Source: an uncultured archaeon
GTDB lineage: Archaea > Thermoproteota > Nitrososphaeria > Nitrososphaerales > Gagatemarchaeaceae
NCBI GenBank assembly: GCA_963817525.1
Contig: CAWFOU010000007.1
Coordinates: forward strand, 1,024,001 to 1,088,000
DNA: 64,000 nt
Direction of reading: 5' to 3'
Numbering within the stretch: the stretch's first letter is position 1; every line of letters starts with the position of its first letter. Of the stretch, positions 46,191-62,619 are shown piece by piece. The notes under the pieces are model-generated. The model saw only the letters and a program-made list of their open reading frames with translations. It did no database searches and was not told where the DNA came from. The position numbers were made by a program, and so were the translations under genes.

Positions 46191-46382
46191 GTCTATCGAA
46201 ACCCTTACCGTGTAGACATAAGGCTTTGCGGGCGCCGCGGGCCGAGCGCGACATCGAGGTCTCCCCTGAAATCGATTAAATACGAACGCGCCTGGGAATC
46301 CGACGTGTCTCGGCACGCGGGCGCGTCGTTTGGGAGGGGGCAGAACAGCGTCATCGCCGCCGAGACAAGGAGAGCGTAATCG

Positions 46383-46856: not shown

Positions 46857-48475
46857 TTGGCAGTAGCTAGGCTAGTCAGGGTGAGGCTGGAAGCGCCCAG
46901 GGGCGATGTGGGGGTGCTCCTCGCGGAGCTCATAAAATTCGCGGAGTTCCACCCCTCGAGGAGCCAGGGGATGGTGCAGGACATCGGCATACTCCTCCTG
47001 GCCTCGGAGGCCCAGGACATCTACACCAAGGCCGGCGACCTGCTCAGCAGCAAGAGCGGGGTGAGGACCGCGGAGGGCAAGAAGAAGGAGGTGGAGAGGT
47101 TCGAAGCCCACGACATCGAAGGCCTGCTAAAAGTGCTGGAGGAATACCTCGGCACGATCGAGGGGAACCTGTCGCTCTTCAAGGAAGAGAAGGACAAGCT
47201 CGGGGTCACCGAGGTACTCCTCGCCATCCAAGAGGCCTCGCTGATGGTGTTCACCGACCTGCAGAGGATATTCGTCTACCCCCTCGACGGAGGGAGGCTG
47301 AGGCTCGAGGGGTTCGTCCCCGCGCACTCTCTCGGGTCGTTCAGAAACTCCCTGGGCAGCTACCTGGTCTCCGAGGAGCCGGTCAAGACGCAGGGCAAGG
47401 AGGTGGCCTACGTCCCGACCCTCCTCGTGAACCCTCGGCTCGTCTCGGTGTTCGAGAGCATAACCCTCATGCGAGGCCTCCCTCGATACGGGGAGGTCGA
47501 CCCAACGCCCATCCTCGCGTTCGTCTTCCCCTTCTTCTTCGGAATAATGTTCGCCGACGTGGGCCACGGGATTGCCCTCCTCGCCCTCGGCCTGTACCTG
47601 GTCTACCGGACCGCCTACAAGTCTTGGGGGAAGCAGATCATCGTCTTGAGCTTCTCCACGGCCCTTTTCGGCTTCATCAGGGGGTCGTTCTTCGGCGTCG
47701 TGTTCACCTCGCCCCTGGAAGAGTTTCGTCAAGCTCCCGCAAGGCCATCACCGCGGGTTTCACTCTCTCCTCGATCCCGTTCCTCTTGGAGGTCGCGATA
47801 GCGATAGGCACCTTCCACCTCGCGAGCGCGTACGCCATCGCCTTCGTCAACCAGGAGAGGGCCGGAAACTACCTGGACGCCTTCCTCGACAGGCTGCCTA
47901 CCGTCGTGCTGTACTGCTTCCTCGTGCCGCTCGGCCTCGCCGCGGCCGGGACCATCCTCGACCTCGGCGCCCTCTTCACGAGCAGCGCGCCCACGCCCCT
48001 CTTCAACGACCTTCTCGGGCTGGACATCCCGGTCTCCGCGACCGCGCGCCTCTGCGTCCCTGTCGTCTTGGGCGCGCTGCTAGTGCTCGTCGCGGGGGAG
48101 CCCATTCGCGAATACCTGCCCACCCGGAAGTGGAGGAGCGCGGTCAGGGGGCTGGGCGCGGGACTTCTGCAAGGGGTGGCGAAGCCCTTCGAGTTCTTCG
48201 TGAACACCCTGAGCTATGTCAGGCTCGGAGTCCTGCTGATCACGACCACGCTGCTGGGGAGCCTGGTCGCGGGCGTCCTGTCGTACGGCGTCGTCGGCAT
48301 AGTCCTGGCGGTCTTCCTCAACATAGCCGTGATGAGCCTGGAGGGCCTGATCGTCTACCTGCAAGACATGAGGCTGCAGCTCTACGAGTGGCTCTCGCAG
48401 TTCTACGCAGGGACGGGTACGCCGTTCACGCCCCTCGTCTCCGGCGGAAGCCACTTCAGCGCAAGCTGGACTTGA
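46857..48475 (+). CDS. A/V-type ATPase subunit I-like protein, frameshifted near 47719-47743
   Basis: PRYGEVDPT, FFGIMFADVGHG, NTLSYVRL, MRLQLYEW; two single-base insertions relative to copy 2. Confidence 0.85.
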
Positions 48476-48485
48476 CTCCCCGACG

Positions 48486-48521
48486 CTCTTAGTTCTGGGA
48501 ATCGTGTTCCCCGTTTAAGTA
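48486..48521 (+). promoter_or_regulatory. Regulon site A + TATA upstream of SDR
   Basis: CTCTTA-gttc-TGGGAATC, 10 bp, TTTAAGTA. Confidence 0.6.
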
Positions 48522-48552
48522 GAAGGGGGCGTCCGAAGGTGCGAAGCTCGCG

Positions 48553-49344
48553 TTGCAATCAACCAGAGGCTCACAGAGTGGCGAGAAGGCGCTGGACGGC
48601 AAGGTCGCCCTGATAACCGGGGCGGGTTCGGGTGTGGGCAGGGCGACTGCCAACCTCTTCGCCAAGAACGGGAGCTCCGTGATCGTGGTCGACCTCCTCC
48701 CCGACAGGGTCAACCAGGTCGTCGCCGAGATAAAGTCTGCCGGAGGCAGCGCGACGGGGGTGGTGATCGACCTCTCTATAGGCACGGAGGTCGACCGGAT
48801 GGTCGACGAGGCCTTGAGGTCCTCCGGGAGGGTGGACATACTGCACAACAACGCGGGCATAATGGACGGCGTCAGGCCCGTGGCCGACACGCCCGACGAG
48901 GTCTGGGAGAAGGTGATGAACATCAACATCAACGCCCCCTTCCGGGCGAGCAGGCGGGTCATCCCCTCTATGCTCAAGCAGGGGGGAGGGGTGATAGTCA
49001 ACACCGCCTCGGTGGCGGGTCTCTTCGGGGGAGTGGCGGGCGCCGCGTACACGGTCTCGAAGCACGCGCTCATCGGGCTGACCCGAAACACGGCCGCCTT
49101 CTACGGCTCAAAGGGGATCAGGTGCAACGCCATGGTGCTGGGAGCGGTGAACACGAACATAGGGGTCGGGAGCGCGCAGCCCAACCCGCTCGGGATGGAG
49201 CAGCTCGGCAAGGTAGCTTCCCTTGTCCCCAGGGTTGCCGAGCCCAGCGAGATAGCCGAGCTAGCGCTGTTCCTGGCCTCGTCCAGGTCGAGCTACGTCA
49301 ACGGCTCGTGCATAGTGATCGACGGCGGCTGGACGGTCTTCTAG
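48553..49344 (+). CDS. SDR-family oxidoreductase
   Basis: TGAGSGVG, NNAG, YTVSK, IDGGW. Confidence 0.95.
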   Translation: MQSTRGSQSGEKALDGKVALITGAGSGVGRATANLFAKNGSSVIVVDLLPDRVNQVVAEIKSAGGSATGVVIDLSIGTEVDRMVDEALRSSGRVDILHNNAGIMDGVRPVADTPDEVWEKVMNININAPFRASRRVIPSMLKQGGGVIVNTASVAGLFGGVAGAAYTVSKHALIGLTRNTAAFYGSKGIRCNAMVLGAVNTNIGVGSAQPNPLGMEQLGKVASLVPRVAEPSEIAELALFLASSRSSYVNGSCIVIDGGWTVF

Positions 49345-49417
49345 CAGAGTGCGCCTTCTGAAGAAGGCGTCCGGTCGCCGCAGATCGTAAGATGGCATCG
49401 ATGCCGGTGACGTTGGA

Positions 49418-50095
49418 ATGACCAAAATGGGAGCTGACCTCGACGGGATGTCCGTCCGCGAGGTGGAGGTCGAGTCCTACTCGGTCACTCTTCCGGGAAT
49501 ACTGACGCTGCCGAAAAGGAAACCGAAGGCGGTCGTCGTCTTTGCTCACGGGAGCGGCAGCAGCCGCCTAAGTCCGAGAAACGCCTACGTCTCGACGGCG
49601 CTCAACGAGGCTGGCTTCGGAACCCTGCTCTTTGACCTGCTCACGAGCAAGGAGGACGCGGTCTACGACAACCGCTTCGATATCGACCTCCTCGCGGAGC
49701 GCTTGACCGCCGCGACAGCATGGCTGCGCGACCAGCAGGGCGTGGCGGGTCTCGACGTGGGGTACTTTGGCGCCAGCACGGGCGCGGCGGCTGCTCTCCA
49801 GGCATCGGTCAGACGAAAGGAGGTCAGAGCGGTGGTCTGTCGGGGTGGGAGGCCCGACCTCGCTTGGGACTACCTCGACCGCGTGGAGGCTCCCACGCTC
49901 CTCATAGTCGGAGGGAGCGACGACAAGGCCGTCCTAGAGTTCAACCAGCGGGCCCTCGGACGGCTGAATCTCGGTGGCGAAAAGAGGCACAACGACCTCG
50001 TCATAATCCCAGGTGCGACCCACCTCTTCGAAGAGCCGGGAGCGCTCGAGGAGGTGGCAAGGGTGGCCACAAACTGGTTCCTGAAGTTCCTCTGA
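49418..50095 (+). CDS. Dienelactone-hydrolase-like alpha/beta hydrolase
   Basis: FAHGSGSSR.SPRN, GASTGA, RGGRPDL, GATHLFEE. Confidence 0.9.
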   Translation: MTKMGADLDGMSVREVEVESYSVTLPGILTLPKRKPKAVVVFAHGSGSSRLSPRNAYVSTALNEAGFGTLLFDLLTSKEDAVYDNRFDIDLLAERLTAATAWLRDQQGVAGLDVGYFGASTGAAAALQASVRRKEVRAVVCRGGRPDLAWDYLDRVEAPTLLIVGGSDDKAVLEFNQRALGRLNLGGEKRHNDLVIIPGATHLFEEPGALEEVARVATNWFLKFL

Positions 50096-50140
50096 GAGGG
50101 ACCACGAGCCCCGTCTCCCTCCCCGCACTATCCGTCAGGG

Positions 50141-50176
50141 TTGCCAAGACTGAGAATCGTAGCCCTGGTTTTTAAG
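50141..50176 (+). promoter_or_regulatory. Regulon site B + TATA upstream of CBS-radical SAM
   Basis: TTGCCA-agac-TGAGAATC, 10 bp, TTTTTAAG. Confidence 0.6.
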
Positions 50177-50207
50177 AGCGCGAGTAATCAAGGCGTCGCA
50201 GAGCCAG

Positions 50208-50723
50208 ATGTCACTTATCGATGCTCCCGTGAGAGGCGTCATGACCAAGGATGTGAAGACGATTGAGGCGACCAAGCCGCTTGCAGACTGCGTCAAGATC
50301 ATGGGGGACGCCAACATCGGGAGCGTGGTGGTAGTGGGGAAGGACAAGACGCCCGTCGGGATATTCACGGAGAGGGATCTGGTGAGGAAGATGGCCGAGA
50401 AAGGCCACGGAATCCTCGCACTCCCTATGGCGCAGACCATGAGCAAACCCTTGACGATCATCTCCCCGGTCGCGACGATCTGGGACGCGCTCACCCTCAT
50501 GGGGAGGGCTGGCATAAGGCGGCTCCCCGTCGTGGAGAACGGCCGCCTGGTCGGGATACTTACCGAGAGGGACGTCTTCCACCTCATTCTGGCTCGCCAG
50601 AGCCTCCTGCTCGAGTCCGTGTCCGAGTCTCTCCCGACGGCCACGAGGGAGCAGCTGAAGGACATGACCCAACGGTTCGGACTCGGGAGCCCTCCCGGCC
50701 GGGCGAGCGGAGCCGGCGAGTAA
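50208..50723 (+). CDS. CBS-domain protein
   Basis: VGIFTERD, RRLPVV, VGILTERD. Confidence 0.92.
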   Translation: MSLIDAPVRGVMTKDVKTIEATKPLADCVKIMGDANIGSVVVVGKDKTPVGIFTERDLVRKMAEKGHGILALPMAQTMSKPLTIISPVATIWDALTLMGRAGIRRLPVVENGRLVGILTERDVFHLILARQSLLLESVSESLPTATREQLKDMTQRFGLGSPPGRASGAGE

Positions 50724-50766
50724 TCTCATCTAGAGGCCCGGGTCTGCCCATAGCGGGGATTCAGGA

Positions 50767-52623
50767 ATGGGGTTGGGCAGCGTCTTCCATACGGACCTTA
50801 CGCTCCTCCACGCGCCCTCGGTGTACGACTTTAGGAAGAGGACCATCCTGCAAGGCCCCATCGCCGACGCCGTCCCTTCCACCGACGAGTTCGAGATGTA
50901 CCCGGTCGGGCTGACCAGCATCGCGTCCTACCTCGGCAAGAACCAGTACAACGTCCGGATCGTGAACCTGGCCTACAGGATGCTCCACGACCCGTCCTAC
51001 GACGTGGAGAGGAGGCTCGGGAAACTGCACTCCACGGTCTTCGGCATCGACCTCCACTGGCTCCCCCACGCGAACGGCGCCCTGGCGATAGCCGAGCTGA
51101 CCAAGCGGCTTCATCCCGAGAGCTACGTGCTCATGGGTGGCCTCTCGTCGAGCTACTACCACGAGGAGCTGGTCAGGTACCCCTACGTCGACTTTGTCCT
51201 CCGCGGCGACTCCACCGAGGAGCCCTGCCGGCAGCTCCTCCAGGCCCTCCGGGAGAACAAGCCGCTCGGGTCGGTCGAGAACCTCACCTGGAAGCGGCCC
51301 GACGGGCAGGTGGTGGTCAACCCGCTCACCTTCGTCCCTGGCGACCTCGACTACGTCGACGTCCCGGACTACCTCTACGCGATCAAGACGATGCTGAAGT
51401 ACCGGAGCCTTGACGACCTGGCCCCCTACCTGAGGTGGCTGAAGTACCCGACGACCATGCTCCTCAACTCGAGGGGGTGCACGCTCGACTGCTCGACCTG
51501 CGGAGGCTCCCGCTCGGCCTACAAGGAGATCTGCGAGAGGTCTTGGCCCGCCTTCCGGTCACCGGAGAAGCTTGTCTCGGACATAAGGTCGATCCGGTCC
51601 TTCTCGAACAGCCCCATCATGATGATCCACGACCCGCGGCTGGGTGGACTCTCGCGCGCCGAGAGGTTCTTCGCGCTGCTGAAGAAGGAGAGGGTGCCGA
51701 ACGAGCTGGTCTTCGAGCTCTTCTATCCCGCGGGGGACGAGTACTTCCAGATGGTCAGGGAGAGCGTCAAGAGGTGGAGCGTGGAGGTCACGATCGAGAC
51801 GCCCGAGGAGAGGCTGCGCAAGCTCGACTGCCTCAAGTTCCCCGTCCCCAACAGCAGGATCGAGGAGACCATAGGGAGCGCGCTCTCCCACGGGTGCGAC
51901 AAGCTGGACCTGTTCTTCATGGTGGGCATCCCGCACCAGACCTACGCGGACGTCATGGCCACCATCCCCTACTGCGAGCACCTGATCGAGCGGTTCGACA
52001 AGGACAAGCGGCTCGAGTTCTTCATATCCCCGATGGGGCCGTTCCTCGACCCGGGCTGCGGGGCGTTCGAGGACCCGAAGTACGGGTACAAGCACTTCTA
52101 CACCACTCTCGAGGAGCACAGGCAGGCGCTCCTCCAGCCCACGTGGAAATCCATCCTTTCATACGAGACCGACGCGATGACGAGGCAGCAGATCATCGAC
52201 GCGAGCTACGACGTGGCCTCGGCCATGAACGAGCTGAAGCACAGGTACGGGCTGATCGACGAAGAGACGTACGCGCACGTGAGCCAGCACCAGAAGGCGG
52301 CGAGGGAGGCGATGGAGGGGATCGAGCAGGCCCTCCTCCTCCCCGAGGACCAGAGGCAGGGCGCCCTGCTGGCGATCCAGGAGAAGGTGCGGGAGGCGAA
52401 CGCCGACACGCTCTTCAGCAAGAAGGAGCTCGACTGGCACGCCAACAACGGCCTCCGGACCAGCGCGACGCTGCTGCGGACGGCCGCACTAGGCCTCGGG
52501 GAGGAGGTCGACCACAGCGTCCACCGTCTCTTCGGGAGATACGACACCGACGTCTACAAGGGGGAGCGGATACCCCTTCAGGCGATGACCATGGACGCCT
52601 TCAAGCAGCTGAACGCCTCGTGA
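50767..52623 (+). CDS. B12-binding-domain radical SAM protein (resembles TIGR04190/Ta0216 family)
   Basis: LLHAPSVYDFR..FEMYPVG, GIDLHWLPH, RGCTLDCSTCGGS (CxxxCxxC), PFLDPG. Confidence 0.88.
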   Translation: MGLGSVFHTDLTLLHAPSVYDFRKRTILQGPIADAVPSTDEFEMYPVGLTSIASYLGKNQYNVRIVNLAYRMLHDPSYDVERRLGKLHSTVFGIDLHWLPHANGALAIAELTKRLHPESYVLMGGLSSSYYHEELVRYPYVDFVLRGDSTEEPCRQLLQALRENKPLGSVENLTWKRPDGQVVVNPLTFVPGDLDYVDVPDYLYAIKTMLKYRSLDDLAPYLRWLKYPTTMLLNSRGCTLDCSTCGGSRSAYKEICERSWPAFRSPEKLVSDIRSIRSFSNSPIMMIHDPRLGGLSRAERFFALLKKERVPNELVFELFYPAGDEYFQMVRESVKRWSVEVTIETPEERLRKLDCLKFPVPNSRIEETIGSALSHGCDKLDLFFMVGIPHQTYADVMATIPYCEHLIERFDKDKRLEFFISPMGPFLDPGCGAFEDPKYGYKHFYTTLEEHRQALLQPTWKSILSYETDAMTRQQIIDASYDVASAMNELKHRYGLIDEETYAHVSQHQKAAREAMEGIEQALLLPEDQRQGALLAIQEKVREANADTLFSKKELDWHANNGLRTSATLLRTAALGLGEEVDHSVHRLFGRYDTDVYKGERIPLQAMTMDAFKQLNAS

Positions 52624-52660
52624 CTCGTCCGGGCTCACCCTCAGGTTCGCGTCCGGGCAG

Positions 52661-52696
52661 TTCTCAGGCCTGGGAATCAGCTTCACATTTTTAAGC
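52661..52696 (+). promoter_or_regulatory. Regulon site C + TATA upstream of Ni permease
   Basis: TTCTCA-ggcc-TGGGAATC, 10 bp, TTTTAAGC. Confidence 0.72.
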
Positions 52697-52724
52697 GGCG
52701 CCCGACTTTCTCGGCCGACCCGAT

Positions 52725-53780
52725 GTGGGGCGAGCCACTGACTCGGCGGCAGGGTTCTCGGGCGGGGAGAAGGCAAGGATCGCCCTGCTATACGGCGCCA
52801 TAATCGTCGTCACGGCGTTCGGGTTTCTGGCCTCCTTCGCCATCGGGCGCGTCGCCATCGTGCTGGCCGGGCTCGGGCTCATCTCCTACGTCCTGGGCCT
52901 CCGGCACGCGGTCGACGCCGACCACATAGCGGCCATCGACAACACCACCCGGAAGCTGCTGCAGGAGAAGAAGCGGCCCCTCGCGGTCGGAACATGGTTC
53001 TCACTCGGCCACTCCACCATAGTCGTCGGGCTCATCGTCGCCTTCGTGCTCGCCGCGCGCGCCTTCAGCTCGAGCGTCCCCACCCTCCAGGCCGACGGCA
53101 ACATAATCGGGACCCTGATATCCGGAGGCTTCCTCTGGATCATAGGCCTAGTAAACGTCGTCATAGTGGTCGGGGTCTACCAGGTCTTCAGGAAGATGAG
53201 GGAAGGGAAGCTCGACCAGAGCGAGCTCGACGACCTCATGGAAAGACGGGGCTTCATGAACCGCTACTTCCACAGGTTCTTCAAGATAGTGAACGAGCCC
53301 TGGCAGATCTACCCGATAGGGGTGCTGTTCGGCCTCGGCTTCGACACCGCCACGGAGGTGGCGCTGATTGCGATAAGCGTGGGCGTCGGGGTCTCGGCCA
53401 ACGTGCCGCTGTATTACGTGCTCGTGCTGCCGCTGATGTTCACCTGCGGGATGGTCCTAGTGGACACGACGGACGGGGTCGCCATGAGGATGGCCTACGG
53501 CTGGGCTTTCCTCAATCCCCTCAGGAAGGTCTACTACAACCTCACGGTGACGATAATATCGATAATGGTGGCTTGGGCCATCGGGTCGATAGAGCTCCTC
53601 CAAGTCCTCTCTTCGGAGCTCAATCTCTCCGGAGGGTTCTGGTTGTGGGTGGACGCCCTTAACTTCGAGACCATCGGCTACGGCATCGTGGGGCTCTTCG
53701 TCGTCTCGTGGATGGCTTCGATGGCTTATTGGCGGCTCGGCAGGTTCGAGCAGAAGTATTCTGGCGTCATTGCGGGCTAG
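52725..53780 (+). CDS. hoxN: High-affinity Ni/Co permease (HoxN/NixA, NiCoT)
   Basis: RHAVDADHIAAID, FSLGHST, LFGLGFDTATE, DTTDG. Confidence 0.95.
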   Translation: MGRATDSAAGFSGGEKARIALLYGAIIVVTAFGFLASFAIGRVAIVLAGLGLISYVLGLRHAVDADHIAAIDNTTRKLLQEKKRPLAVGTWFSLGHSTIVVGLIVAFVLAARAFSSSVPTLQADGNIIGTLISGGFLWIIGLVNVVIVVGVYQVFRKMREGKLDQSELDDLMERRGFMNRYFHRFFKIVNEPWQIYPIGVLFGLGFDTATEVALIAISVGVGVSANVPLYYVLVLPLMFTCGMVLVDTTDGVAMRMAYGWAFLNPLRKVYYNLTVTIISIMVAWAIGSIELLQVLSSELNLSGGFWLWVDALNFETIGYGIVGLFVVSWMASMAYWRLGRFEQKYSGVIAG

Positions 53781-53798
53781 GCCGCGGCGCTGACGCCT

Positions 53799-54230
53799 CT
53801 AGCCTTCTTTCAATCGCGTGACCTGACCCTGATGGCCCAGCCTCTCGGCGACGACCGGATTCGCCAAGACGTAGACAGACACCTCTCCGTCCTTCATCTC
53901 GACGCGGAGGCTGCTGAAGACGCTCCTGTACACCGCGTGCCCCTTCCCCTTGCCCGTGGCGACCTTCCGCTCGACGGTCAGCACCCCTTGGCTCACCAGC
54001 TGCTTGACCTTCCTGTAGCATGTGCTTACCGGGATTCGCTGGTCGGAGCAGATTTCTTCGACCGTCCTTCCGACCGAGACCGTCGAGCTCACTATCTTCC
54101 TCGAACACTCATCAGTGAGCGCGTCCATCAGCGCGGTCGCTGACCCGACGCTGTCGACTGGAACGGCGGCCCCTGCGTCCTTGGGTTCGGACGGTCTCCC
54201 CGTCGTGATCACGCTAGGCTGGACCGTCAC
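53799..54230 (-). CDS. ArsR-like winged-helix regulator
   Basis: ALTDECSRKI, TVEEIC...IPVSTCYRKVKQL. Confidence 0.8.
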   Translation of the reverse strand: MTVQPSVITTGRPSEPKDAGAAVPVDSVGSATALMDALTDECSRKIVSSTVSVGRTVEEICSDQRIPVSTCYRKVKQLVSQGVLTVERKVATGKGKGHAVYRSVFSSLRVEMKDGEVSVYVLANPVVAERLGHQGQVTRLKEG

Positions 54231-54380
54231 TCGAGCTTCCCCGGCCCAACCGGTTCGATGCCGAAACCAATCCGCGAGACGTTGTGCGCGACAATCCTAG
54301 TGGGATTCCAGAAGCTCCCCACGTGATATCAGGGTTCTACCGGACATATCCGGCATCCCGTAAATACGGTCGCTTCCCGC

Positions 54381-55067
54381 GTGCGAGGCATGCGCCGTGT
54401 CGTCATGGAGCTTTCTGAGCAGGGGATGGAGAAGATGGCGGGCTTCACGCTGGAGCTCTCGAGGGATATCGAGTCATTGGAGGTCTTGCACCGCCTCAGG
54501 CACGGGACCGAAGGGTCGGCCATCGTCTGCAGGATCAAGCCGAAGGACAAAGCGGCTAAGATGGGCGAGCTGAAGTTCAAGTTCAAGAAGTTCGAGGTGC
54601 TCTCTGAGGAGGCGGACGGGTTTCTCGTCTACCTAGAGGCGGAGGCCGCTCGTCTGCCCCCGCTAGGCCCGAACCCTCCAAAAATCTTCCTCAACCTGCC
54701 CATCGAGGTCAGAGGAGGGAGTCGGAGGGTGACCATCCTCGGCGACTCTGCGGAGTTGAGGAAGCTGTTCCGATGGCTCGGTAAGAGGGGTGTCAACTTC
54801 GAAGTCCTATCGAACTCTGATGCCAGGTCCTCCCCCGAGTCTGCCCTCGGGGGCCTCTCGGGGCAGCAAAAGAAGGCGTTGTTGGCGGCCTACGCCCACG
54901 GGTACTACGAAATTCCCAGAAGGTCCCACCTGGACGAGATAGCCAGGGAGCAGAAGGTGAACAAGTCCACCTTCGCGGAGCACCTGCTGAAAGCGGAGAA
55001 CCGCCTCATAGGGAGCATCCTGGCGGAAGAGCTCAATCACCCGAACCCGGAAGGCCGCAAGGTCTAG
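54381..55067 (+). CDS. Bat-like HTH_10 transcription regulator
   Basis: LSGQQKKAL.AAY..GYYEIPRR..LDEIA....V.KSTF.EHL.KAE. Confidence 0.88.
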   Translation: MRGMRRVVMELSEQGMEKMAGFTLELSRDIESLEVLHRLRHGTEGSAIVCRIKPKDKAAKMGELKFKFKKFEVLSEEADGFLVYLEAEAARLPPLGPNPPKIFLNLPIEVRGGSRRVTILGDSAELRKLFRWLGKRGVNFEVLSNSDARSSPESALGGLSGQQKKALLAAYAHGYYEIPRRSHLDEIAREQKVNKSTFAEHLLKAENRLIGSILAEELNHPNPEGRKV

Positions 55068-55077
55068 AGCTTGGGGC

Positions 55078-56691
55078 TCAAGTCCACTTGGCGCTGAAGT
55101 GGGCGCCGCCGGAGATGAGGGGCATGAACGGCGTCCCTGTCCCGGCGTAGAACTGTGGAAGCCACTCGTATAGCTGCAGCCTCATGTCCTGCAGGTAGAC
55201 GATCAGGCCCTCCAGGCTCATCACGGCGACGTTGAGGAAGACCGCCAGGATTATGCCGACGACGCCATACGACATCACGCCCGCGACGAGGCTCCCCAGG
55301 AGGGTCGTCGTTATCAACAGGACCCCGAGCCTGACGTAGCTGAGGGTGTTGGTGAAGAACTCGAACGGCTTCGCCACCCCTCCGAGGAGGCCCGCGCCGA
55401 GCCCCCTGACGGCGCTCTTCCACTTGCGGGTCGACAGGTAGTCGCGTATCGGCTCCCCCACGATGAGGACGGCCAGCGCGACCAGGACGACCGGAAGGGA
55501 GACGCGCGCGGTCTCGTAGACGGGGATGTCAATCCCGAGGAGGCCGTTGAAAAGGGGCGTAGGCGCGCTGCTGGTAAAGAGCACGCCAAAGTCGAGGGCC
55601 GTCCCGGCCACGGCGAGCCCCAGGGGCACCAGGAACACGTAGAGCACCACCGTGGGCAGCCTGTCCAGGAGTGCATCCAGATAGTTTCCGGCCCTCTCCT
55701 GGTTGATGAAGCCTATGGCGTAGGCGCTCGCGAGGTGGAAGGCGCCTATGGCTATCGCGACCTCGAGCAGGAACGGGATGGAAGAGAGGGTGAATGCCGC
55801 CGTGATCTCTTGGGGGAGCTTGACGACGCTCTCCAGGGGCGAGGTGAACACCACCCCGAAGATCAACCCCCTGACGAAGCCGAAGAGGGCCGCCGAGAAG
55901 CTCAGGACGAGGAGCTGCTTGCCCCACGACTTGTAGGCCGTCCGATAGATGAGGTACAGGCCCACCGCGAGGAGCGCGATCCCGTGCCCCACGTCGGCGA
56001 ACATTATGCCGAAGAAGAACGGGAAGACGAACGCGAGGATGGGGGTGGGGTCGACCTCCCCATACCGGGGGAGGCCCCGCATGAGGGTTATGCTCTCGAA
56101 GACGGAGACCAGCCGGGGGTTCACCAGGAGCGTCGGGATGTACGCCACCTCTTTGCCCTGCGTCTTGACGGGCTCGGCCGAGACAACGTAGCTGCCCAGG
56201 GATGCCCTGAACGACTCGAGTGAGTGCGCGGGGAGGAACCCCTCGAACGCCAGCCTCCCTCCATCGAGAGGGTACACGAAGATCCTCTGCAGGTCAGTGA
56301 ACACCATCAGCGACGCCTCCGGGATTGCCAGCAGGACCTCGGTGACCCCCAGCTTGTCCTTCTCCTGCTTGAAGAGCGACAGGTTCCTCTCTATGGTGCC
56401 GAGGTAGTCCTGCAGCCCTTTGAGCAGCCCTTCGATGTCGTGGGCCTCGAACCTCTCCACCTCCTTCTTCTTGCCCTCTGCGGCCCTCACTCCCCCCTTG
56501 CTCAGCAGGTCGCCGGCCCTGGTGTAGATGTCCTGCGCCTCCGACGCAAGCAGGAGTATCCCTATGTCCTGCACCATTCCCTTGCTCCTCGAGGGATGGA
56601 ACTCGGTGAACTTGATGAGCTTCGCGAGCATCACGCCGACCTCCGTCCTGGGCGCTTCCAGCCTCGCCCTGACGAGTCTAGCTACTGCCAA
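55078..56691 (-). CDS. A/V-type ATPase subunit I-like protein (intact, 537 aa)
   Basis: PRYGEVDPT, FFGIMFADVGHG, NTLSYVRL (essential Arg), FYAGTGTPF. Confidence 0.88.
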   Translation of the reverse strand: MAVARLVRARLEAPRTEVGVMLAKLIKFTEFHPSRSKGMVQDIGILLLASEAQDIYTRAGDLLSKGGVRAAEGKKKEVERFEAHDIEGLLKGLQDYLGTIERNLSLFKQEKDKLGVTEVLLAIPEASLMVFTDLQRIFVYPLDGGRLAFEGFLPAHSLESFRASLGSYVVSAEPVKTQGKEVAYIPTLLVNPRLVSVFESITLMRGLPRYGEVDPTPILAFVFPFFFGIMFADVGHGIALLAVGLYLIYRTAYKSWGKQLLVLSFSAALFGFVRGLIFGVVFTSPLESVVKLPQEITAAFTLSSIPFLLEVAIAIGAFHLASAYAIGFINQERAGNYLDALLDRLPTVVLYVFLVPLGLAVAGTALDFGVLFTSSAPTPLFNGLLGIDIPVYETARVSLPVVLVALAVLIVGEPIRDYLSTRKWKSAVRGLGAGLLGGVAKPFEFFTNTLSYVRLGVLLITTTLLGSLVAGVMSYGVVGIILAVFLNVAVMSLEGLIVYLQDMRLQLYEWLPQFYAGTGTPFMPLISGGAHFSAKWT

Positions 56692-56710
56692 GTTGGAGCG
56701 CTATCCGGAC

Positions 56711-57160
56711 TCAGCGTATCACAAGGACCGCGCAGGCCGCGTACTCGACGAGGCCGGCCGCCACGCTCCCCACGAGCATCCTCCTCGAGGGGGTCGTCCC
56801 CCGGGTCCCCGTCACAATTAGGTCGGCCTTCACCGTCTCCGCGTAGCCGAGTATCGCGTCGACGACGGAGTAGGCGCCCACGACGACCTCGGTCTTCACC
56901 CCGATCCCGCTCCTCGTCGCTATCTCCTCGACGTCCTTCATCCACTTCTTCGCGTCCCTCCTCGCGCTCGCGTAGATCTCTGCAAGGTCGCCCTTCACCT
57001 CGAACGGAGGGACGGGCACGACGTGGAGCGCGACCAGCTCCGCCCCGTCCTGCCTTGCGATGCGCGCCGCGTGCTCGGCCGCCCGAAGAGAGACCTCCGA
57101 CCCGTCCACGGCCACGATTAGTCTGGTGAAGCCTCTCTTGGTCGACGAGGACGATGACAT
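56711..57160 (-). CDS. Universal stress protein (copy 2)
   Basis: Nearly identical protein to 46383-46832. Confidence 0.95.
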   Translation of the reverse strand: MSSSSSTKRGFTRLIVAVDGSEVSLRAAEHAARIARQDGAELVALHVVPVPPFEVKGDLAEIYASARRDAKKWMKDVEEIATRSGIGVKTEVVVGAYSVVDAILGYAETVKADLIVTGTRGTTPSRRMLVGSVAAGLVEYAACAVLVIR

Positions 57161-57274
57161 GGAGCTACTCCTGCCGTCTCGCGGCGTCGACCGCGCTGGT
57201 CGATCGTCTTTCTTCCCGCGCCCACACCTGCGCAGACACGTCCGGTTCTCTGGCGCTTTCGTATTTAATCAATT

Positions 57275-58434
57275 GAGGCATGGGCATAATTCTATCGTTG
57301 ATTGACGCGTTAGCAAAATCTGATTGAGATAGGATGCTAAGGGTCTCCGTCCCGGGAGACCTGTTGGCACAATGAATCCCGGTAGGAGACTTCCTAGCAC
57401 GATGCTACTCTCTGAGTCGTTCCTTATTGGGATTCTACGTCTAATCGGTTTGATTCCTTGGCCAACACATTCCAAGAGACGTGCTGGGAGGCCATACATC
57501 TACCCGCCTCTCGTGATGCTCAGATGCTTCATCGTGAGGGTATGGATGAGGATACCGAGCAACAACGCGCTCCACTCGTTCTTCCTCCTCTCCACAGAGA
57601 ACCCGTACAACGCGAGGATCATGATGGCGTGTGGTCTCGATAGGATTCCAGACAGGAGGACGTTCGACAGGAGGCTCAAGAACATCTCAGCCGATGGGAG
57701 CGACGAGGACCTCAGGCCGCGGATAGATGCGATGGGTCGCCTGTTCGTCGCAGAGGAGTTGATCGACCCATACATCGCGTCAGTGGACAGCACGCTCCTC
57801 AAGGCCAAGGGCCACGTATGGCACAGGAGCAGCATGGAGAAGGGTTTCGTTTACTCCGGGACAGACACGGACGCGCGGTGGGGCAAGAGCAGGACAAAGG
57901 GATGGGTCTTCGGATACAAGCTTCACATCGTGAGCAGCACGGGCTCGCTCATCGTTCCTATCTCAGCCGATTTCACCACAGCCAATATCCCTGACAGCAA
58001 GGTCTACGGGAGGGTGACCGCGTCCCTGCGCGGCGTCAGGTATGTGGATGGCGACCAGGGCTACGACGTCGACGACCTCTACGAGCTGAGCAGGGAGAGA
58101 GGGTTCGACCTCGTCTGTCCCATAGCGAGGTATGAGAACACGCATCCAGATAGGGTCGAGCTCGTGTTCTTCTACGAGTCTGAGCTCGGGCAGCTGGTAT
58201 ACTCGTGGAGGAGCAAATCGGTAGAGCCTCTCTTCGAGCAAATCAAAGATGTCTTCGGGATCGACCCTCTCCCGGTGAGAGGATTCGACAAGACGAAGAT
58301 GTCTGTCCTTCTATCGGTTCTGCTGTATCAGACGATGGTATACTACAATCATCTGACAGGGAGATCGCTGAGGGCGCTCAAACACATGCTCGGGAGTTGA
58401 GAGACCCTACACGGGACAATTATGCCCATGCCTC
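57275..58434 (+). mobile_element. Intact 1160-bp DDE insertion sequence (IS4/IS5/IS982-like superfamily)
   Basis: 17-bp perfect TIR GAGGCATGGGCATAATT; 8-bp TSD AATCAATT at 57267-57274 and 58435-58442. Confidence 0.93.
57372..58400 (+). CDS. DDE transposase
   Basis: SVDST, DTDARWG, FGYKLH, GDQGYD, R..SVEPLFEQIK. Confidence 0.92.
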   Translation: MNPGRRLPSTMLLSESFLIGILRLIGLIPWPTHSKRRAGRPYIYPPLVMLRCFIVRVWMRIPSNNALHSFFLLSTENPYNARIMMACGLDRIPDRRTFDRRLKNISADGSDEDLRPRIDAMGRLFVAEELIDPYIASVDSTLLKAKGHVWHRSSMEKGFVYSGTDTDARWGKSRTKGWVFGYKLHIVSSTGSLIVPISADFTTANIPDSKVYGRVTASLRGVRYVDGDQGYDVDDLYELSRERGFDLVCPIARYENTHPDRVELVFFYESELGQLVYSWRSKSVEPLFEQIKDVFGIDPLPVRGFDKTKMSVLLSVLLYQTMVYYNHLTGRSLRALKHMLGS

Positions 58435-58449
58435 AATCAATTAAGGGAC

Positions 58450-58485
58450 TTCTCAGAGTTGAGAATCACCAGCGCGCATAAATAG
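58450..58485 (+). promoter_or_regulatory. Regulon site D + TATA upstream of hydrogenase operon
   Basis: Perfect TTCTCA-gagt-TGAGAA(TC), 10 bp, ATAAATAG. Confidence 0.75.
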
Positions 58486-58574: not shown

Positions 58575-59741
58575 ATGCAAGTAACTAGGCGCGACTTTCT
58601 AAAGCTGGCAGGGGTCCTCGGCGCGGGCTTTGTCATAACAGCATATTCTCCAGGCATAAAGAAGGTCTTCGCCCAGGTGCAGTCCCAGAACGTGCACCTC
58701 ATTTGGATTCACCTCGGGTCCGACTCTGGTTGCTCGATATCGATGCTCCAGGCCTACAACCCTGACCTCATATCCTCCGTGGTCGATCTGGGACTTCAAG
58801 TGGACTTTTGGCAGGTTCTGATGACTCCCGACTACCAGATTGGGGACCTGGGGTGGATCACCGCCGGATACACGACGGAGGACACTTCGGAGCTCCCGAT
58901 CATCAACGCCGCGTTCGGGAGCGCACCGGTGGACGTGCTCGTCGTCGAGGGTACGCCGCAAGTCGCCACTCCGCCCGGCGGCGTGGCCGGAGGCTACTGC
59001 ACGGTCGGGCAGTACAACGGCCAGGACGTCACGGGGTACGAGCTGCTCCAGAAGCTCGCGGCCAAGGCCAGCTATGTGGTCGCGGTGGGCCAGTGCTCCT
59101 CATTCGGCGGCATCCCCGCGGGCAAGGGGAACCTCACGGGCGGCACCTCCGTGGTCAACGCCTTGAAGATGGCAGGGGTGAGCACGGCCAACCCTGTGAT
59201 CAACATGCCCGGATGTCCCGCCAATCCCGACTGGACCCTCGTCACGCTGGCGTCGGTCATCCAGGGCTTCAAACCCGACCTCGACAGCCTGGGACGCCCC
59301 ACCGCGTTCTACAGCGAGACCATCCACGACCATTGTCCGCGGAGGGGAGCCTACGACAAGGGCGACTTTGCGACGGTCTTCGACGACCCTTACGGCTGCC
59401 TATGGAAGCTGGGGTGCAAGGGGCCCATTACGTACGGGGCCTGCTCGCTGACCCACTGGAACTCGGGGACGGGGACGTGCACCCTCGCCGGCCCGATGTG
59501 CTGGGGGTGCATGAACGAGAGCTTTCCCGACCCGCCGACTAGCCCGTTCTTCGACGAGATCGAGCTCACGCCAGCCTTCTTCGGGGTCAACGTCAACGAC
59601 ATAGCGATAGGCGCCGCGGCGGCCACGGCCGGGGTCATAGCGGTCCACGCGGTAGCGCGGGAGCTGCGGGGGGACCGCAAGAAGGAGGACGCGGGCGCCC
59701 CGGCGGGCCACCAGGGGCAGAGCGAGGGCGGTGGCAGTTGA
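58575..59741 (+). CDS. [NiFe]-hydrogenase small subunit (Tat-exported, C-terminal anchor)
   Basis: TRRDFLK; VEG, GQCSSFGGIP, PGCP, HDHCPRR, CL.KLGCKGP, CWGC. Confidence 0.93.
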   Translation: MQVTRRDFLKLAGVLGAGFVITAYSPGIKKVFAQVQSQNVHLIWIHLGSDSGCSISMLQAYNPDLISSVVDLGLQVDFWQVLMTPDYQIGDLGWITAGYTTEDTSELPIINAAFGSAPVDVLVVEGTPQVATPPGGVAGGYCTVGQYNGQDVTGYELLQKLAAKASYVVAVGQCSSFGGIPAGKGNLTGGTSVVNALKMAGVSTANPVINMPGCPANPDWTLVTLASVIQGFKPDLDSLGRPTAFYSETIHDHCPRRGAYDKGDFATVFDDPYGCLWKLGCKGPITYGACSLTHWNSGTGTCTLAGPMCWGCMNESFPDPPTSPFFDEIELTPAFFGVNVNDIAIGAAAATAGVIAVHAVARELRGDRKKEDAGAPAGHQGQSEGGGS

Positions 59742-61329
59742 CCAGGATAGTCGTCGACCCCGTCGCTAGGATAGAGGGGCACATGAAGGTGGAGGTCGAG
59801 GTGGACGACACAACCAACCTCGTGACCTCGGGCAAGTGCAGCGCCGTCCTCTACAGGGGTTTCGAGAACATAGTCCTGGGGAGGGACCCGAGGGACGCGG
59901 CTCCGATACTCTCAGCGATATGCGGGGTCTGCCACAGCGACCACCACATAAACTCCGTCAGGGCGGTCGAGAACGCGGCCGGGATGCTCTCCTACCCGAG
60001 CAGCTACAGCACGGAGCAGACGAGCATCCCAAAGAACGCCGTCCTGAGCAGGAACGTGATACTGGGAGCGGACTGGGCGTATTCGCACGCAGCGCACCTT
60101 CTGGTCCTCGCGGGGCCTGACTATGCGCTCTACAACCTCCTCCAGGTCCTGAGCCAGTCCGTGGTAATCACCGACTATGCGAGCCTCCTAAAATGGGCCG
60201 TGATACCCGCGCAGGCGTACATGCATCAGCTCATCACCCTCTGGGGCGGGAAGACCCCCACCAGAGGGGGTCGATCCCGGGAGGGAACCCGGTCAGGCCT
60301 ACGGCCGACGTCATCGAGCAGTCGAAGAACAAGGTCTCGAACCTCAGGACCATCACCGACGTCGTCGCCCCCGTGATCTGGAACTTCCTCACCGCGGACG
60401 CCATCCAGCTCTCCCAGCTCGGGCCAGGCCCCGGAAACTTCATCTCGCTCGGGGCCTTCCCCGACCCGACCACCTCCTCAGGAACGTCGAGCATGCCTTT
60501 GACCCTCCCGAGGGGAGTCCTGGTCTATCCGAGCACGACGCCCATCCCATTCGACCCGACCCAGATCACCGAGACCGTCCCCTACTCTTGGTACAACCAG
60601 CCGCTCTCCGTCCCCGTGATCGGAGAGCAGCCGCCCGTCCCCGACCAGACGAACCCGAACGCCTACTCGTGGGCCAAGTCGCCGCGATACGCAGGCAACC
60701 CGACCGAGAGCGGCCCGCTCGCGCGCGAATACGTCTCCGGCATATACCCGAAGCTGGGGCAGATAGTGAACAGCATAGTCCCCTCAGTGCCGGGGTTTCC
60801 CCTCAACCCCAAGGGGTCGGTCTTCGACAGGCTCGTGACGAGGGCGATAGAGCTGGTGGCTCTCGTGGGCTCGAACAACACGACGAAGAACCTCATGGCG
60901 CTAGGACAGCCGCTCAACCTCTCCCTCGTGGACGTCCTGACCGCCCTCGGCCTGCCGACGAACGGCCTCATCGAGACCTGGCTGGACGGGATGGACGTCG
61001 GTGAACCGGCCTACACTCCCTACACCGAACCCACGTCGGGCCAGGGGATGGGGCTCTGGGAGGCTCCACGCGGATCTTTGTTCCACTGGCTGAGCATAGA
61101 CTCTAGCAAAGTGAGCGACTACCAGGTCGTGGCGCCCACGACGTGGAACGTCTCCCCCAACGGCCCTCTCGAGGGCGCGCTGGTGGGGACCCCGGTCGGG
61201 ACAACGGGGACCAACCAGGACCTGAGGCAGACCGCGTGGGTGGTGAGGTCGTTCGACCTGTGCCTTGCGTGCACCGTCCACACCATCGACGCACGCGGGA
61301 ACGAGCGCTACGTCAAGATCAGGCCGTGA
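59738..61329 (+). CDS. [NiFe]-hydrogenase large subunit (frameshift in C-run 60255-60259)
   Basis: DPVARIEGH, RGFE, ICGVC, GGKTPH, YSWAKSPRY, EAPRG, PTTWN, RSFDLCLACTVH + cleavable tail. Confidence 0.93.
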
Positions 61330-61339
61330 TCGTGCGCCC

Positions 61340-62092
61340 ATGCCCGAGAAGACCGTAAGGACGATGCGGCACGACCTTGCGGTGAGGCTCGTCCATTGGG
61401 CGATAGTCGTCGAGGGCGCCTTCCTGCTCCTGAGCGGGGCCCAGCTCAACGGCCTCCTCCCGTTCATCACGTGGGATCTCTACTCGTACCACATCATCGT
61501 GGGGTTCGCGTTCATAGGGACCGCGGTCATATTCTTCTACGTCGTCCTCGCCGAGCACGACTACCACTGGTTCGGGCTGCGACGGATCCCGTACTCGATC
61601 CGCTTCATTCTCGCGGAGGCTGGGTACTGGTTCAGGCTCAGGCCGAAGGTAGACGAGGCCAAGATAAAGTTCGACGCGCAGAAGGGCCAATACGTAGAGA
61701 AGCTCATACCGAGCGTCATCGTGGTCTGGTGGCTCTACATTGCGATGGGTGTCATCCTCACGCTGACCGGCCTCGCGGACGCCTTCCCGAAGACCTTCGC
61801 CTGGGAATACACGCTCTTGAACCCCATAGGCCTTGCGCTCACCGGGGTCGACGGCCTGCCGTGGATACTCGCGGTGCACAGGCTGGTCGCCGTGCTGCTG
61901 GTCTGCACCGTGGCGCTGCACCTCTACGCGTCGATCTTGTACAGGCTCGTCGGCTCCATCTTCATAGGATACAGGAACGAGCCAGTCGCGGAGAGTGAAA
62001 AGCCCCCTGCAGGACCTCCGCTCGTCGCGGCCTTTCACGCCCCCAAGGAACCCCTGGCCAAGACCCCAGACGACGAAGGACGTCACGCCTGA
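61340..62092 (+). CDS. Hydrogenase-associated cytochrome b subunit
   Basis: VRLVHW, YHIIVG, VHRL, LHLY: four TM His. Confidence 0.85.
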   Translation: MPEKTVRTMRHDLAVRLVHWAIVVEGAFLLLSGAQLNGLLPFITWDLYSYHIIVGFAFIGTAVIFFYVVLAEHDYHWFGLRRIPYSIRFILAEAGYWFRLRPKVDEAKIKFDAQKGQYVEKLIPSVIVVWWLYIAMGVILTLTGLADAFPKTFAWEYTLLNPIGLALTGVDGLPWILAVHRLVAVLLVCTVALHLYASILYRLVGSIFIGYRNEPVAESEKPPAGPPLVAAFHAPKEPLAKTPDDEGRHA

Positions 62093-62121
62093 CGACGCAT
62101 GACCGCGGATCTACGAGGCGG

Positions 62122-62619
62122 GTGGGAGAGTTGCAAAGGGGGGTCGTGATAATAGGTCTCGGCAACGTGTTCCTGCACGACGACGCGGTAGGCGTCAGGG
62201 TCGCCGAGGCGCTGACTGATGTGGCGCCGAACCTGAAAGCCTCCCAAAGCGTCCATGTCGAGAAATACGAGGAGATGGACCTGTCCATCCTGCAGGAGAT
62301 GAAGGACGCGTCCAGGCTGATAATCATAGACTCGATCAAGTCGGGAACGGACCCGGGAACTGTCTCGTTATTCCAACTCGGAGAAAGGCCAGGCGAACTG
62401 GAGAGCATCCCCAGCCTCCACGAGCTCGACCTCTCCGACATGGTGTACCTGGCACAAACGCTCGGGATGCTGCACTGTCCGGTCCTCATAGTGGGAGTCG
62501 AGCCGGAAGACCTCAGCATCGGGGAGGGGCTCTCGGCAAGGGTTGAAGCGGCAATACCTCGCGCCGTGACGGCCGTCCTCTCGAGCCTGGGCGAACAAGG
62601 AGGCAGATGCGGAGAATGA
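62122..62619 (+). CDS. Hydrogenase maturation protease
   Basis: GLGNVFLHDDAVG, IIDS, SLH, GVEP, GLS..V. Confidence 0.93.
   Translation: MGELQRGVVIIGLGNVFLHDDAVGVRVAEALTDVAPNLKASQSVHVEKYEEMDLSILQEMKDASRLIIIDSIKSGTDPGTVSLFQLGERPGELESIPSLHELDLSDMVYLAQTLGMLHCPVLIVGVEPEDLSIGEGLSARVEAAIPRAVTAVLSSLGEQGGRCGE

Follow-up and report, generated by a model that had tools for sequence, protein, structure and literature searches.

Which regulator, if a single one, governs the hydrogenase operon and its neighbours in an uncultured soil archaeon, and how far does its control reach? The locus lies in a stretch of 64,000 nucleotides (nt), the window (G000:C7:1024001-1088000), where G000 denotes the assembly of this archaeon (2.82 Mb, 61% GC, 15 contigs) and C7 one of its contigs. 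A first-pass annotation had described palindromes at 48486, 50141, 52661 and 58450, and we find all four at exactly these positions, each consisting of TGRGAATC followed by ten bases (N10) and a TATA box. As that annotation had proposed, the palindrome stands at a fixed distance upstream of TATA and is common to the promoters of a short-chain dehydrogenase/reductase (SDR) gene, a CBS/B12-radical-SAM operon, the NicO nickel/cobalt transporter gene and a NiFe hydrogenase operon (Table 1). Judged from sequence, the palindrome is a genuine promoter element, sharply defined and conserved, and it belongs to a clustered redox regulon of an uncultured genus of Thaumarchaeota from soil and peat.

The full element reads (G/A)ATTCTCA-N4-TGAGAATCG, a palindrome of 20 bases. 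Its half-sites (GATTCTCA-N4-TGAGAATC) lie 10 bp apart from centre to centre, and the size of the dyad suits a dimer. The left half is degenerate at 48486 and 50141, with 2 mismatches each. Site 48486, with 3 core mismatches, is a weak member of the set; it is supported mainly by its right half and TCGT flank, which fit the consensus, and by its TATA spacing. Taken alone, the octamer TGRGAATC is unremarkable: it matches the window 8 times where 4.46 matches are expected, and counts of 8 or more turn up in 9 of 100 shuffles, which is not significant. The case for the element therefore rests on the whole architecture. Another TGGGAATC octamer, at 46293-46300 near or upstream of a Usp gene, has neither a partner half at N4 nor TATA at N10 and was rejected as an element.

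The genome was scanned with the 20-mer, mismatches permitted, and with the core TTCTCA-N4-TGAGAA combined with TATA at a fixed offset (a W-rich heptamer at offset 11-14). As controls we used 59 other palindromes made by permuting the same hexamer, as well as all other gaps from 0 to 10. We count 5 exact cores in the genome (control mean 0.22, maximum 2), while the same half-sites at every other gap give 0-1 occurrences. A comparison with background near TATA boxes had been suggested as a check on the motif when it was first described, and the composite of core and heptamer is enriched: 8 occurrences with up to 1 core mismatch against a mean of 0.39 (maximum 4), and 24 with up to 2 mismatches against 5.64 (maximum 15). 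At 3 mismatches the signal drowns in background (115 against 61, maximum 113), and site 48486 was graded weak for this reason. Note that contig C15 (G000:C15:1-1900) duplicates the C7 1105400-1105600 stretch that carries the promoter of a 181-amino-acid membrane protein, so that one site is counted twice in the raw scans. Near-copies of GCTTCTCACCGATGAGGATC at G000:C1:485857, 937391 and 1150091 and at loci L090 and L091, found also in G009 and G022, lie in a longer repeat and have no TATA; they look like part of a repeated gene rather than promoters and slightly inflate the raw motif counts.

About nine further promoters with the element lie just outside the window, at C7 1096-1148 kb and C8 82-87 kb, giving about 13 in the genome, and all of these further sites have TATA at about N10. 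As all convincing sites fall within C7 1072-1148 kb and C8 82-87 kb, the regulon is physically clustered. Start codons in G000 follow the start of the element by 57-72 nt, or by 127 nt at the hydrogenase. With TATA at +30, these distances imply short or absent leaders. Two of the C7 promoters precede flavoproteins with twin-arginine translocation (TAT) signals, which are most like flavocytochrome c and 3-ketosteroid-dehydrogenase-type enzymes at scores below the curated cut-offs.

We then compared G000 with 22 genomes of the same genus, 2 of the same family and 16 others of the order, using the reversed core as control. The relatives are metagenome-assembled genomes (MAGs) and were read as fetched stretches. 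According to a study of the family, palsa-1368 belongs to the Gagatemarchaeaceae (Group I.1c, f_UBA183), which have no ammonia oxidation and a GC content of 54-62% (PMC10640624). The exact core occurs 102 times in the 22 same-genus genomes against 3 for the control; 20 of the 22 have it, the two without being G003 and G005. The two same-family genomes hold 1 and 2 occurrences. Clustering recurs in relatives, for example with 5 sites in G015:C8:309-321 kb and 6 in G021:C3:122-186 kb.

Spacing was inspected at 78 distinct exact sites from the same-genus and same-family genomes. A heptamer with at least 6 of 7 A/T lies at offset 11-14 after the 16-mer, on one side, at 62 of these. The offset profile peaks with 56-57 of the 78 sites at offsets 12-13 and falls to 7 or fewer beyond offset 16. 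The remaining 16 sites mostly have a weaker box (CTTAAAG, TTTAAG and similar) at the same place; about four of the 78 have no box, two of them in a repeated, coding-like context. Sixty oriented sites yield the consensus rATTCTCA-N4-TGAGAATCGt-N8-cTTTAAATA. The TCG of the TATA-proximal flank is conserved and the distal flank is not, and the site is therefore used in an oriented way.

Conservation at orthologous promoters, on which the original proposal had been made to depend, was found for two operons and not for NicO. The B12-radical-SAM gene was matched in 11 of 23 genus genomes. Counting one locus per genome in 10 genomes and leaving out the fragment loci of G011 and G021, we find that 8 of 10 have the element upstream at a distance of one or two genes. 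This operon has no element in G002 and in G021, whose gene is broken by stops. The hydrogenase small subunit gene is present in 8 of the 23 genomes; in G013 it lies at a contig edge and was excluded as unassessable. Among the 7 assessable hydrogenase promoters, element and TATA are found in G000, G008, G010 and G002, and G015 is a partial case in which the right half and TATA are present but the left half is imperfect and set off by a gap of 5 nt; the element is absent from G001 and G011. For NicO (14 loci in 13 genomes, 12 assessable), only G000 and G008 have it. The site first proposed to bring nickel import under joint control is present at the G000 promoter but kept in only these 2 of 12, and NicO is a lineage-specific recruit to the element.

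The first-pass annotation had spoken of a hydrogenase regulon. However, 20 of 22 same-genus genomes have the element and only 8 of 23 the hydrogenase; this is therefore not a hydrogenase regulon. The first proposal holds in outline but drew the regulon too narrowly. The commonest first genes behind element and TATA encode TAT-signal FAD_binding_2 flavoproteins (13 promoters: two in G000, one each in G001, G007 and G010, two in G011, one in G013, four in G015 and one in G021). HTH_10 regulators follow (5 by Pfam and 3 more), then DsrE (3; G000, G014 and G021), Usp (3, all in G013), a ferredoxin with an RHH-like N-terminus (2) and AllG (2). Single cases are HypC, Rieske, Hcp/prismane, an EB_dh-type haem subunit, VKOR, V4R, GYD, CtaA, Hsp20, CBS, a P-type ATPase and Bmp, and several promoters precede conserved unknown proteins of 290-500 amino acids. 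The theme of the regulon is extracytoplasmic and membrane redox machinery with stress proteins.

The best-conserved target is the radical-SAM protein, a full member of the uncharacterised family TIGR04190 (Ta0216). Proteins about 60% identical to it occur in a Bacillota MAG. An identity as glycerol dialkyl glycerol tetraether (GDGT) ring synthase was considered and is unsupported, given these Bacillota proteins and NCBIfam and database names that say only "TIGR04190 family". The literature searched contained no mention of TIGR04190 or Ta0216.

Sequencing runs with matches to the window comprise one peat RNA library and two runs of unspecified kind, as contigs only. In the peat metatranscriptome, some contigs match stretches of the genes for the small and large hydrogenase subunits and of the radical-SAM gene with full identity. 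From such contigs neither start nor strand, level or induction can be read, and DNA may be their source; we take them as a weak hint of expression. The runs of unspecified kind have contigs that end at 58449, 58486 and 58491.

The architecture suggests how the element could work, and it is very probably the site of one transcription factor. A dimeric factor would bind (G/A)ATTCTCA-N4-TGAGAATCG, whose half-sites, being 10 bp apart, fall on the same side of the helix. Ten base pairs separate the site from TATA, and the centre of the site lies about 20 bp upstream of the TATA start and, we infer, at about -50 from the transcription start. Protein bound here would stand next to transcription factor B (TFB) and TATA-binding protein (TBP), abutting but not covering the TFB-recognition element (BRE) and TATA, which is the position of an archaeal activator. 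By recruiting or stabilising TFB/TBP such a factor would fit a spacing held within about 1 bp in about 74 of 78 sites, and the conserved TATA-proximal flank would fit it as well. The regulon, in this genus of Group I.1c (Gagatemarchaeaceae) Thaumarchaeota, is encoded largely in one or two genomic regions. Its members in G000 are a TAT-exported group-1-type NiFe hydrogenase with cytochrome b, NicO, the CBS/B12-radical-SAM and SDR genes, TatA, a DsrE-TusA-SQR-like-HypA-Mrp operon, two TAT flavocytochrome-c-like flavoproteins, a Rieske/cytochrome b complex, a TAT metallophosphoesterase and unknown membrane proteins.

Candidate regulators are proteins of 214-261 amino acids with PF04967 (HTH_10) as their sole Pfam match and no PAS or GAF domain. 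An HTH_10 gene (217-261 amino acids) stands directly behind the element in G018, G019, G020, G023 and G024. Homologues in G002 and G040 have a promoter with a 2-mismatch site and TATA, and G021, the closest relative with an element cluster, has a frame-shifted homologue behind an exact site. In a tree of 22 HTH_10 proteins two clades stand apart, both supported at 97/93. Clade I contains all the autoregulated genes; its members have PSTLsEiLRrAEkK as a common recognition helix, and their N-terminal domains hold 3-5 cysteines, with a single column invariant across 16 clade I sequences. Clade II comprises the window gene 54381, four of its paralogues and C7:401k, with a helix of the type STxxxHxxKAExR. 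Of the 23 genus genomes, 16 yielded full-length clade I genes; the other 7 include the element-less G003 and G005. A hand-calculated co-occurrence of clade I and element (P = 0.083, 21/253) was not used as a test, kin being non-independent. The only clade I member in G000 lies outside the window, at G000:C7:229660-230328.

Whether a clade I HTH_10 protein binds the element is, on this sequence pattern, an evenly balanced question. The regulator had been sought in the local wHTH (winged helix-turn-helix) gene 53799 or HTH_10 gene 54381; the cysteine-bearing clade I, autoregulated in 8 relatives, is the more likely source, and the choice of a local gene was probably wrong. A sequence search started from the autoregulated regulator brought up close thaumarchaeal relatives and nothing else, under the name "predicted DNA binding protein". 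Compared with the PDB, the AlphaFold model of this regulator (pLDDT 72.9) matched no fold meaningfully (TM scores of 0.23 or less), and no sensor fold was assignable.

Could the shared sequence be something other than an activator site? The N4 spacers, N10 gaps and flanks are unrelated between sites, which are therefore not copies of one repeat. Together with the enrichment over 59 composition-matched controls and all other gaps, and with conservation at orthologous promoters of diverged genomes, this makes chance, duplicated promoter cassettes or a small mobile repeat a highly improbable source of the similarity, even though the octamer alone is unenriched in the window, two target genes are tandem paralogues (C7 1100114 and 1102105), one site is duplicated on C15 and an insertion sequence (IS) transposase adjoins the hydrogenase promoter. 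A repressor operator, at which the bound protein blocks TFB recruitment until a signal derepresses, deserves more weight. The site ends only about 3-4 bp from where a BRE of 6-7 bp would start, and some archaeal regulators repress from near BRE. Clade I genes in G013 and G009 have a single TGAGAAT half-site 1-3 nt from TATA, a repressor-like position, and in G000 a GATTCTA half lies just downstream of TATA. Yet the strict 10-bp gap leaves BRE/TATA free in about 74 of 78 sites, which occlusion would not need and face-specific contact with the pre-initiation complex would lead one to expect, and the asymmetric conservation of the TATA-proximal TCG suggests oriented contact. We consider repression unlikely and favour activation as the probable mode of control.

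Two local proteins compete with clade I for the role of regulator. The window HTH_10 protein, as activator of the four local promoters, has position on its side: its gene sits between the NicO and hydrogenase promoters, its G021 orthologue (64% identical) lies inside the G021 element cluster and is again paired with a wHTH gene, and it is of the same Pfam family as the autoregulated regulators. It belongs, however, to clade II, split from the autoregulated clade with support 97/93, lacks a cysteine cluster and has the recognition helix KSTFAEHLLKAENRL instead of PSTLSEILRRAEKK. Close orthologues occur only in G021, whereas the element is genus-wide, and its own promoter has no element but a distinct palindrome with a symmetric double substitution in G021; we regard this protein as very unlikely to act at the four sites. 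The island-encoded wHTH family (53799 and paralogues) is also improbable as the regulon regulator, though less so. Three of the four G000 paralogues (window 53799, C7 1099229, C8 91685) have a site no more than 5 kb away, as do, at distances up to about 5 kb, homologues in G004, G006, G008 (two), G013 (two), G015, G017, G020 and G021. One paralogue is the third gene of an element-driven operon (DUF6390 - 432 amino acids - wHTH), and the 10-bp half-site spacing would fit a winged-helix dimer. But among the Pfam-scanned open reading frames (ORFs) no wHTH gene comes first after element and TATA, while HTH_10 does in 8 cases over all loci examined; homologues also occur in the element-less G003 and G005 and in ammonia oxidisers without element enrichment. 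An island location is expected of any island gene, and the window wHTH promoter has no element.

The divergent promoter between these two local genes carries, in place of the element, the palindrome CCGGACATATCCGG, which has the counterpart CCAGACATGTCTGG at the same place in G021; the change is double and symmetric, so that the dyad is kept. CCGGACATATCCGG is unique in the genome (1 exact occurrence; one-mismatch matches 4 against 3 for the reversed control) and probably serves one of the two local regulators as operator. At least one of them therefore probably recognises that other sequence.

Our best overall explanation is a dimeric-factor site that would serve a genus-wide redox regulon, be read by a clade I HTH_10 protein and respond to low oxygen or redox state; as a whole we give this an even chance. 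The low-oxygen or redox signal, argued from gene content and by analogy with the gene sets that FNR/ANR or DosR control in bacteria, falls a little short of that; the low-O2/H2 signal first proposed is plausible on the same gene content. Targets in relatives that bear on the signal are Hcp/prismane, the EB_dh haem subunit, Usp, Hsp20, CBS proteins, ferredoxins, DsrE and HypC, and in G000 an arginine-deiminase operon next to a site bears on it too. Sulfide/persulfide or H2 may be the signal instead.

A number of observations weigh against this explanation. In the 16 other genomes of the order, which include ammonia oxidisers, the exact core is barely above control (15 against 5), and the relatives are kin, so that counts across genomes are non-independent. 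The G000 clade I gene (C7:229660-230328) has no full element upstream, and none of the 7 HTH_10 paralogue loci in G000 has a site with 2 or fewer mismatches. Autoregulation is patchy across the clade I subgroups (5/5, 2/8, 1/3 and 0/5), and in five element-bearing genomes, G004, G006, G012, G016 and G017 (57-79% complete), a full-length clade I gene was looked for and not found. Co-localisation with element regions is no poorer for the wHTH paralogues than for the HTH_10 genes. Finally, the CtaA (haem A synthase) and COX1-like targets are aerobic, and the signal therefore need not be anoxia. At locus L035 no site with 3 or fewer mismatches was found.

The nearest described case is that of the haloarchaeal CGAA-N4-TTCG promoters with NarO/DmsR. 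In promoters of nir, nor and nos genes that are induced anaerobically, this semi-palindrome precedes the ATG by 66-79 nt, and NarO and DmsR are bacterio-opsin-activator-like regulators of anaerobic respiration (PMC10062603, PMC11218638). For Haloferax, the protein that binds CGAA-N4-TTCG is described as not established (PMC10062603). Both systems have a 4-nt-spaced dyad at a similar position (57-72 nt, 127 for the hydrogenase, here; 66-79 nt upstream of ATG there) that is common to several respiratory-enzyme promoters, oxygen-free induction being the haloarchaeal feature. The candidate regulators resemble NarO/DmsR as short HTH_10 proteins without PAS/GAF, a likeness at the level of the HTH_10 family only. 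The half-site differs (TTCTCA against CGAA), as do the lineage (Thaumarchaeota against Halobacteria) and the targets, which here are hydrogenase, TAT flavoproteins and sulfur-relay genes and not nar/nir/nor/nos. NarO has conserved N-terminal cysteines.

SurR of Thermococcales, a winged-helix protein with a CxxC switch, recognises GTT-N3-AAC. Direct reading finds this box in none of the four palindromes, in agreement with the first description of the sites. Common to both systems would be a redox-linked regulator that acts on a short palindrome close to BRE/TATA and so controls operons for hydrogenase and electron transport, but motif and spacer differ, and the best candidate here is an HTH_10 and not a winged-helix CxxC protein. 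The FNR/ANR box, TTGAT-N4-ATCAA, is likewise an N4 dyad at a fixed distance from the core promoter and is bound by a Cys-liganded oxygen sensor; the element resembles it, by analogy only, as an N4-spaced dyad at a fixed distance upstream of the core promoter. The gene content overlaps with the mycobacterial DosR hypoxia regulon in Usp, alpha-crystallin/Hsp20, CBS, ferredoxin, anaerobic reductases, hydrogenase and Hcp. FNR/ANR and DosR belong to protein families unrelated to the candidates here and work with bacterial transcription machinery. In the literature searched we found no description of the element or of any Group I.1c regulon.

Group I.1c soil and peat Thaumarchaeota have so far been described as aerobic heterotrophs. 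To our knowledge, almost nothing is known about gene regulation in non-ammonia-oxidising Thaumarchaeota, none of which is cultured. The word hydrogenase has 0 occurrences in the Gagatemarchaeaceae paper (PMC10640624). A genus-wide element makes the regulon computable, joining H2 oxidation, nickel supply, TAT export, exported flavoprotein reductases, sulfur-relay proteins and a B12-radical-SAM family, and offers an experimental handle for DNA affinity purification sequencing (DAP-seq), metatranscriptomes and reporter assays. It also suggests switching of respiratory mode in these abundant archaea of acid soil and peat. A more far-reaching proposal, which we advance tentatively and hold to be doubtful, is a genus-wide single-regulator switch: an FNR-like, Cys-sensing HTH_10 activator outside the haloarchaea that turns on an extracytoplasmic respiratory module upon oxygen or redox limitation. 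If true, the module would comprise H2 uptake by the group-1 NiFe enzyme, TAT enoate/fumarate-reductase-like terminal reductases for organic acceptors, sulfide handling and the B12-radical-SAM enzyme. A facultatively anaerobic, H2-oxidising lifestyle would then be directly testable in an uncultured lineage, with the element as marker.

Table 1. Palindromic sites and associated genes. Plain positions refer to the window; C7 and C8 positions to contigs of G000.
Feature	Position	Strand	Description
Weak site CTCTTA-gttc-TGGGAATC	48486..48503, with TATA to 48521	+	N10, then TTTAAGTA at 48514; promoter of SDR/dienelactone-hydrolase-like pair
Site TTGCCA-agac-TGAGAATC	50141..50158, with TATA to 50176	+	N10, then TTTTTAAG at 50169; promoter of CBS-B12/radical-SAM operon
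Site TTCTCA-ggcc-TGGGAATC	52661..52678, with TATA to 52695	+	N10, then TTTTAAG at 52689; NicO promoter
Site TTCTCA-gagt-TGAGAATC, exact core	58450..58467, with TATA to 58485	+	N10, then ATAAATAG at 58478; promoter of NiFe hydrogenase operon
Separate palindrome CCGGACATATCCGG	54340..54368	+	N6, then TATA GTAAATA; divergent wHTH/HTH_10 promoter (53799/54381)
SDR oxidoreductase	48553-49344	+	Element target
Alpha/beta hydrolase, DLH-like	49418-50095	+	Element target
CBS-pair protein	50208-50723	+	Target operon
TIGR04190-family B12-binding radical SAM protein	50767-52623	+	635 bits, cut-off 500
HoxN/HupN/NixA-family nickel/cobalt transporter (NicO)	52725..53780	+	TIGR00802, 345.7 bits, cut-off 333
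wHTH (HTH_20/TrmB-like) regulator gene	53799..54230	-	One of 4 G000 paralogues; candidate or secondary regulator
HTH_10 regulator gene, clade II	54381..55067	+	No Cys cluster; recognition helix unlike autoregulated clade
NiFe hydrogenase small subunit, TAT signal	58575-59741	+	Operon 58575..62619
NiFe hydrogenase large subunit, two frames	59738-60376 and 60193-61329	+	Hydrogenase operon
Cytochrome b	61265-62092	+	Hydrogenase operon
HyaD/HycI-type maturation protease	62122-62619	+	Hydrogenase operon
Site	C7 1096178		DsrE - TusA - SQR-like flavoprotein - HypA - Mrp/ApbC-like ATPase
Site, bidirectional	C7 1096615		Minus side TatA; plus side, TATA at same distance, DUF6390 - 432 amino acids - wHTH paralogue
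Sites	C7 1100114 and 1102105		Two TAT-signal FAD_binding_2 flavoproteins; tandem paralogues
Site	C7 1105489		181-amino-acid membrane protein
Site	C7 1148367		TAT-signal metallophosphoesterase
Site	C8 82803		Unknown protein, about 590 amino acids
Site	C8 87095		455-amino-acid unknown protein - Rieske protein - cytochrome b

Several reading frames in the region appear to be interrupted. The hydrogenase large subunit (59738-61329) runs in two frames; the intact G008 orthologue aligns to 59820-60251 and then, in another frame, to 60284-61318. The frame change falls between about 60252 and 60284; an error of the assembly or a genuine frameshift would account for it. One contig of the RNA library, with a sequence identical to that of the window, stops at 60232. 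Three ORFs with partial V_ATPase_I-like matches lie at 46857-48475 and 55078-56691; two of them (46857-47801 and 47624-48475) overlap in different frames, which suggests a frame change or split gene. In the first TAT flavoprotein (L001 12179-13874, equal to G000:C7:1100179-1101874), a TAT N-terminus of 79 amino acids is out of frame with a body of 561. Breaks in all three suggest assembly indel errors or several pseudogenes.

An IS-type DDE transposase gene (57372-58400) ends about 50 nt before the hydrogenase palindrome, so that this promoter borders a mobile element. On C8, a wHTH paralogue heads an operon with Usp, an amino-acid permease, arginine deiminase and carbamate kinase (L004 13192-18125, equal to G000:C8:87192-92125). 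This arginine-deiminase operon has no full element of its own and lies directly upstream of the promoter of the operon for the 455-amino-acid protein, Rieske protein and cytochrome b.

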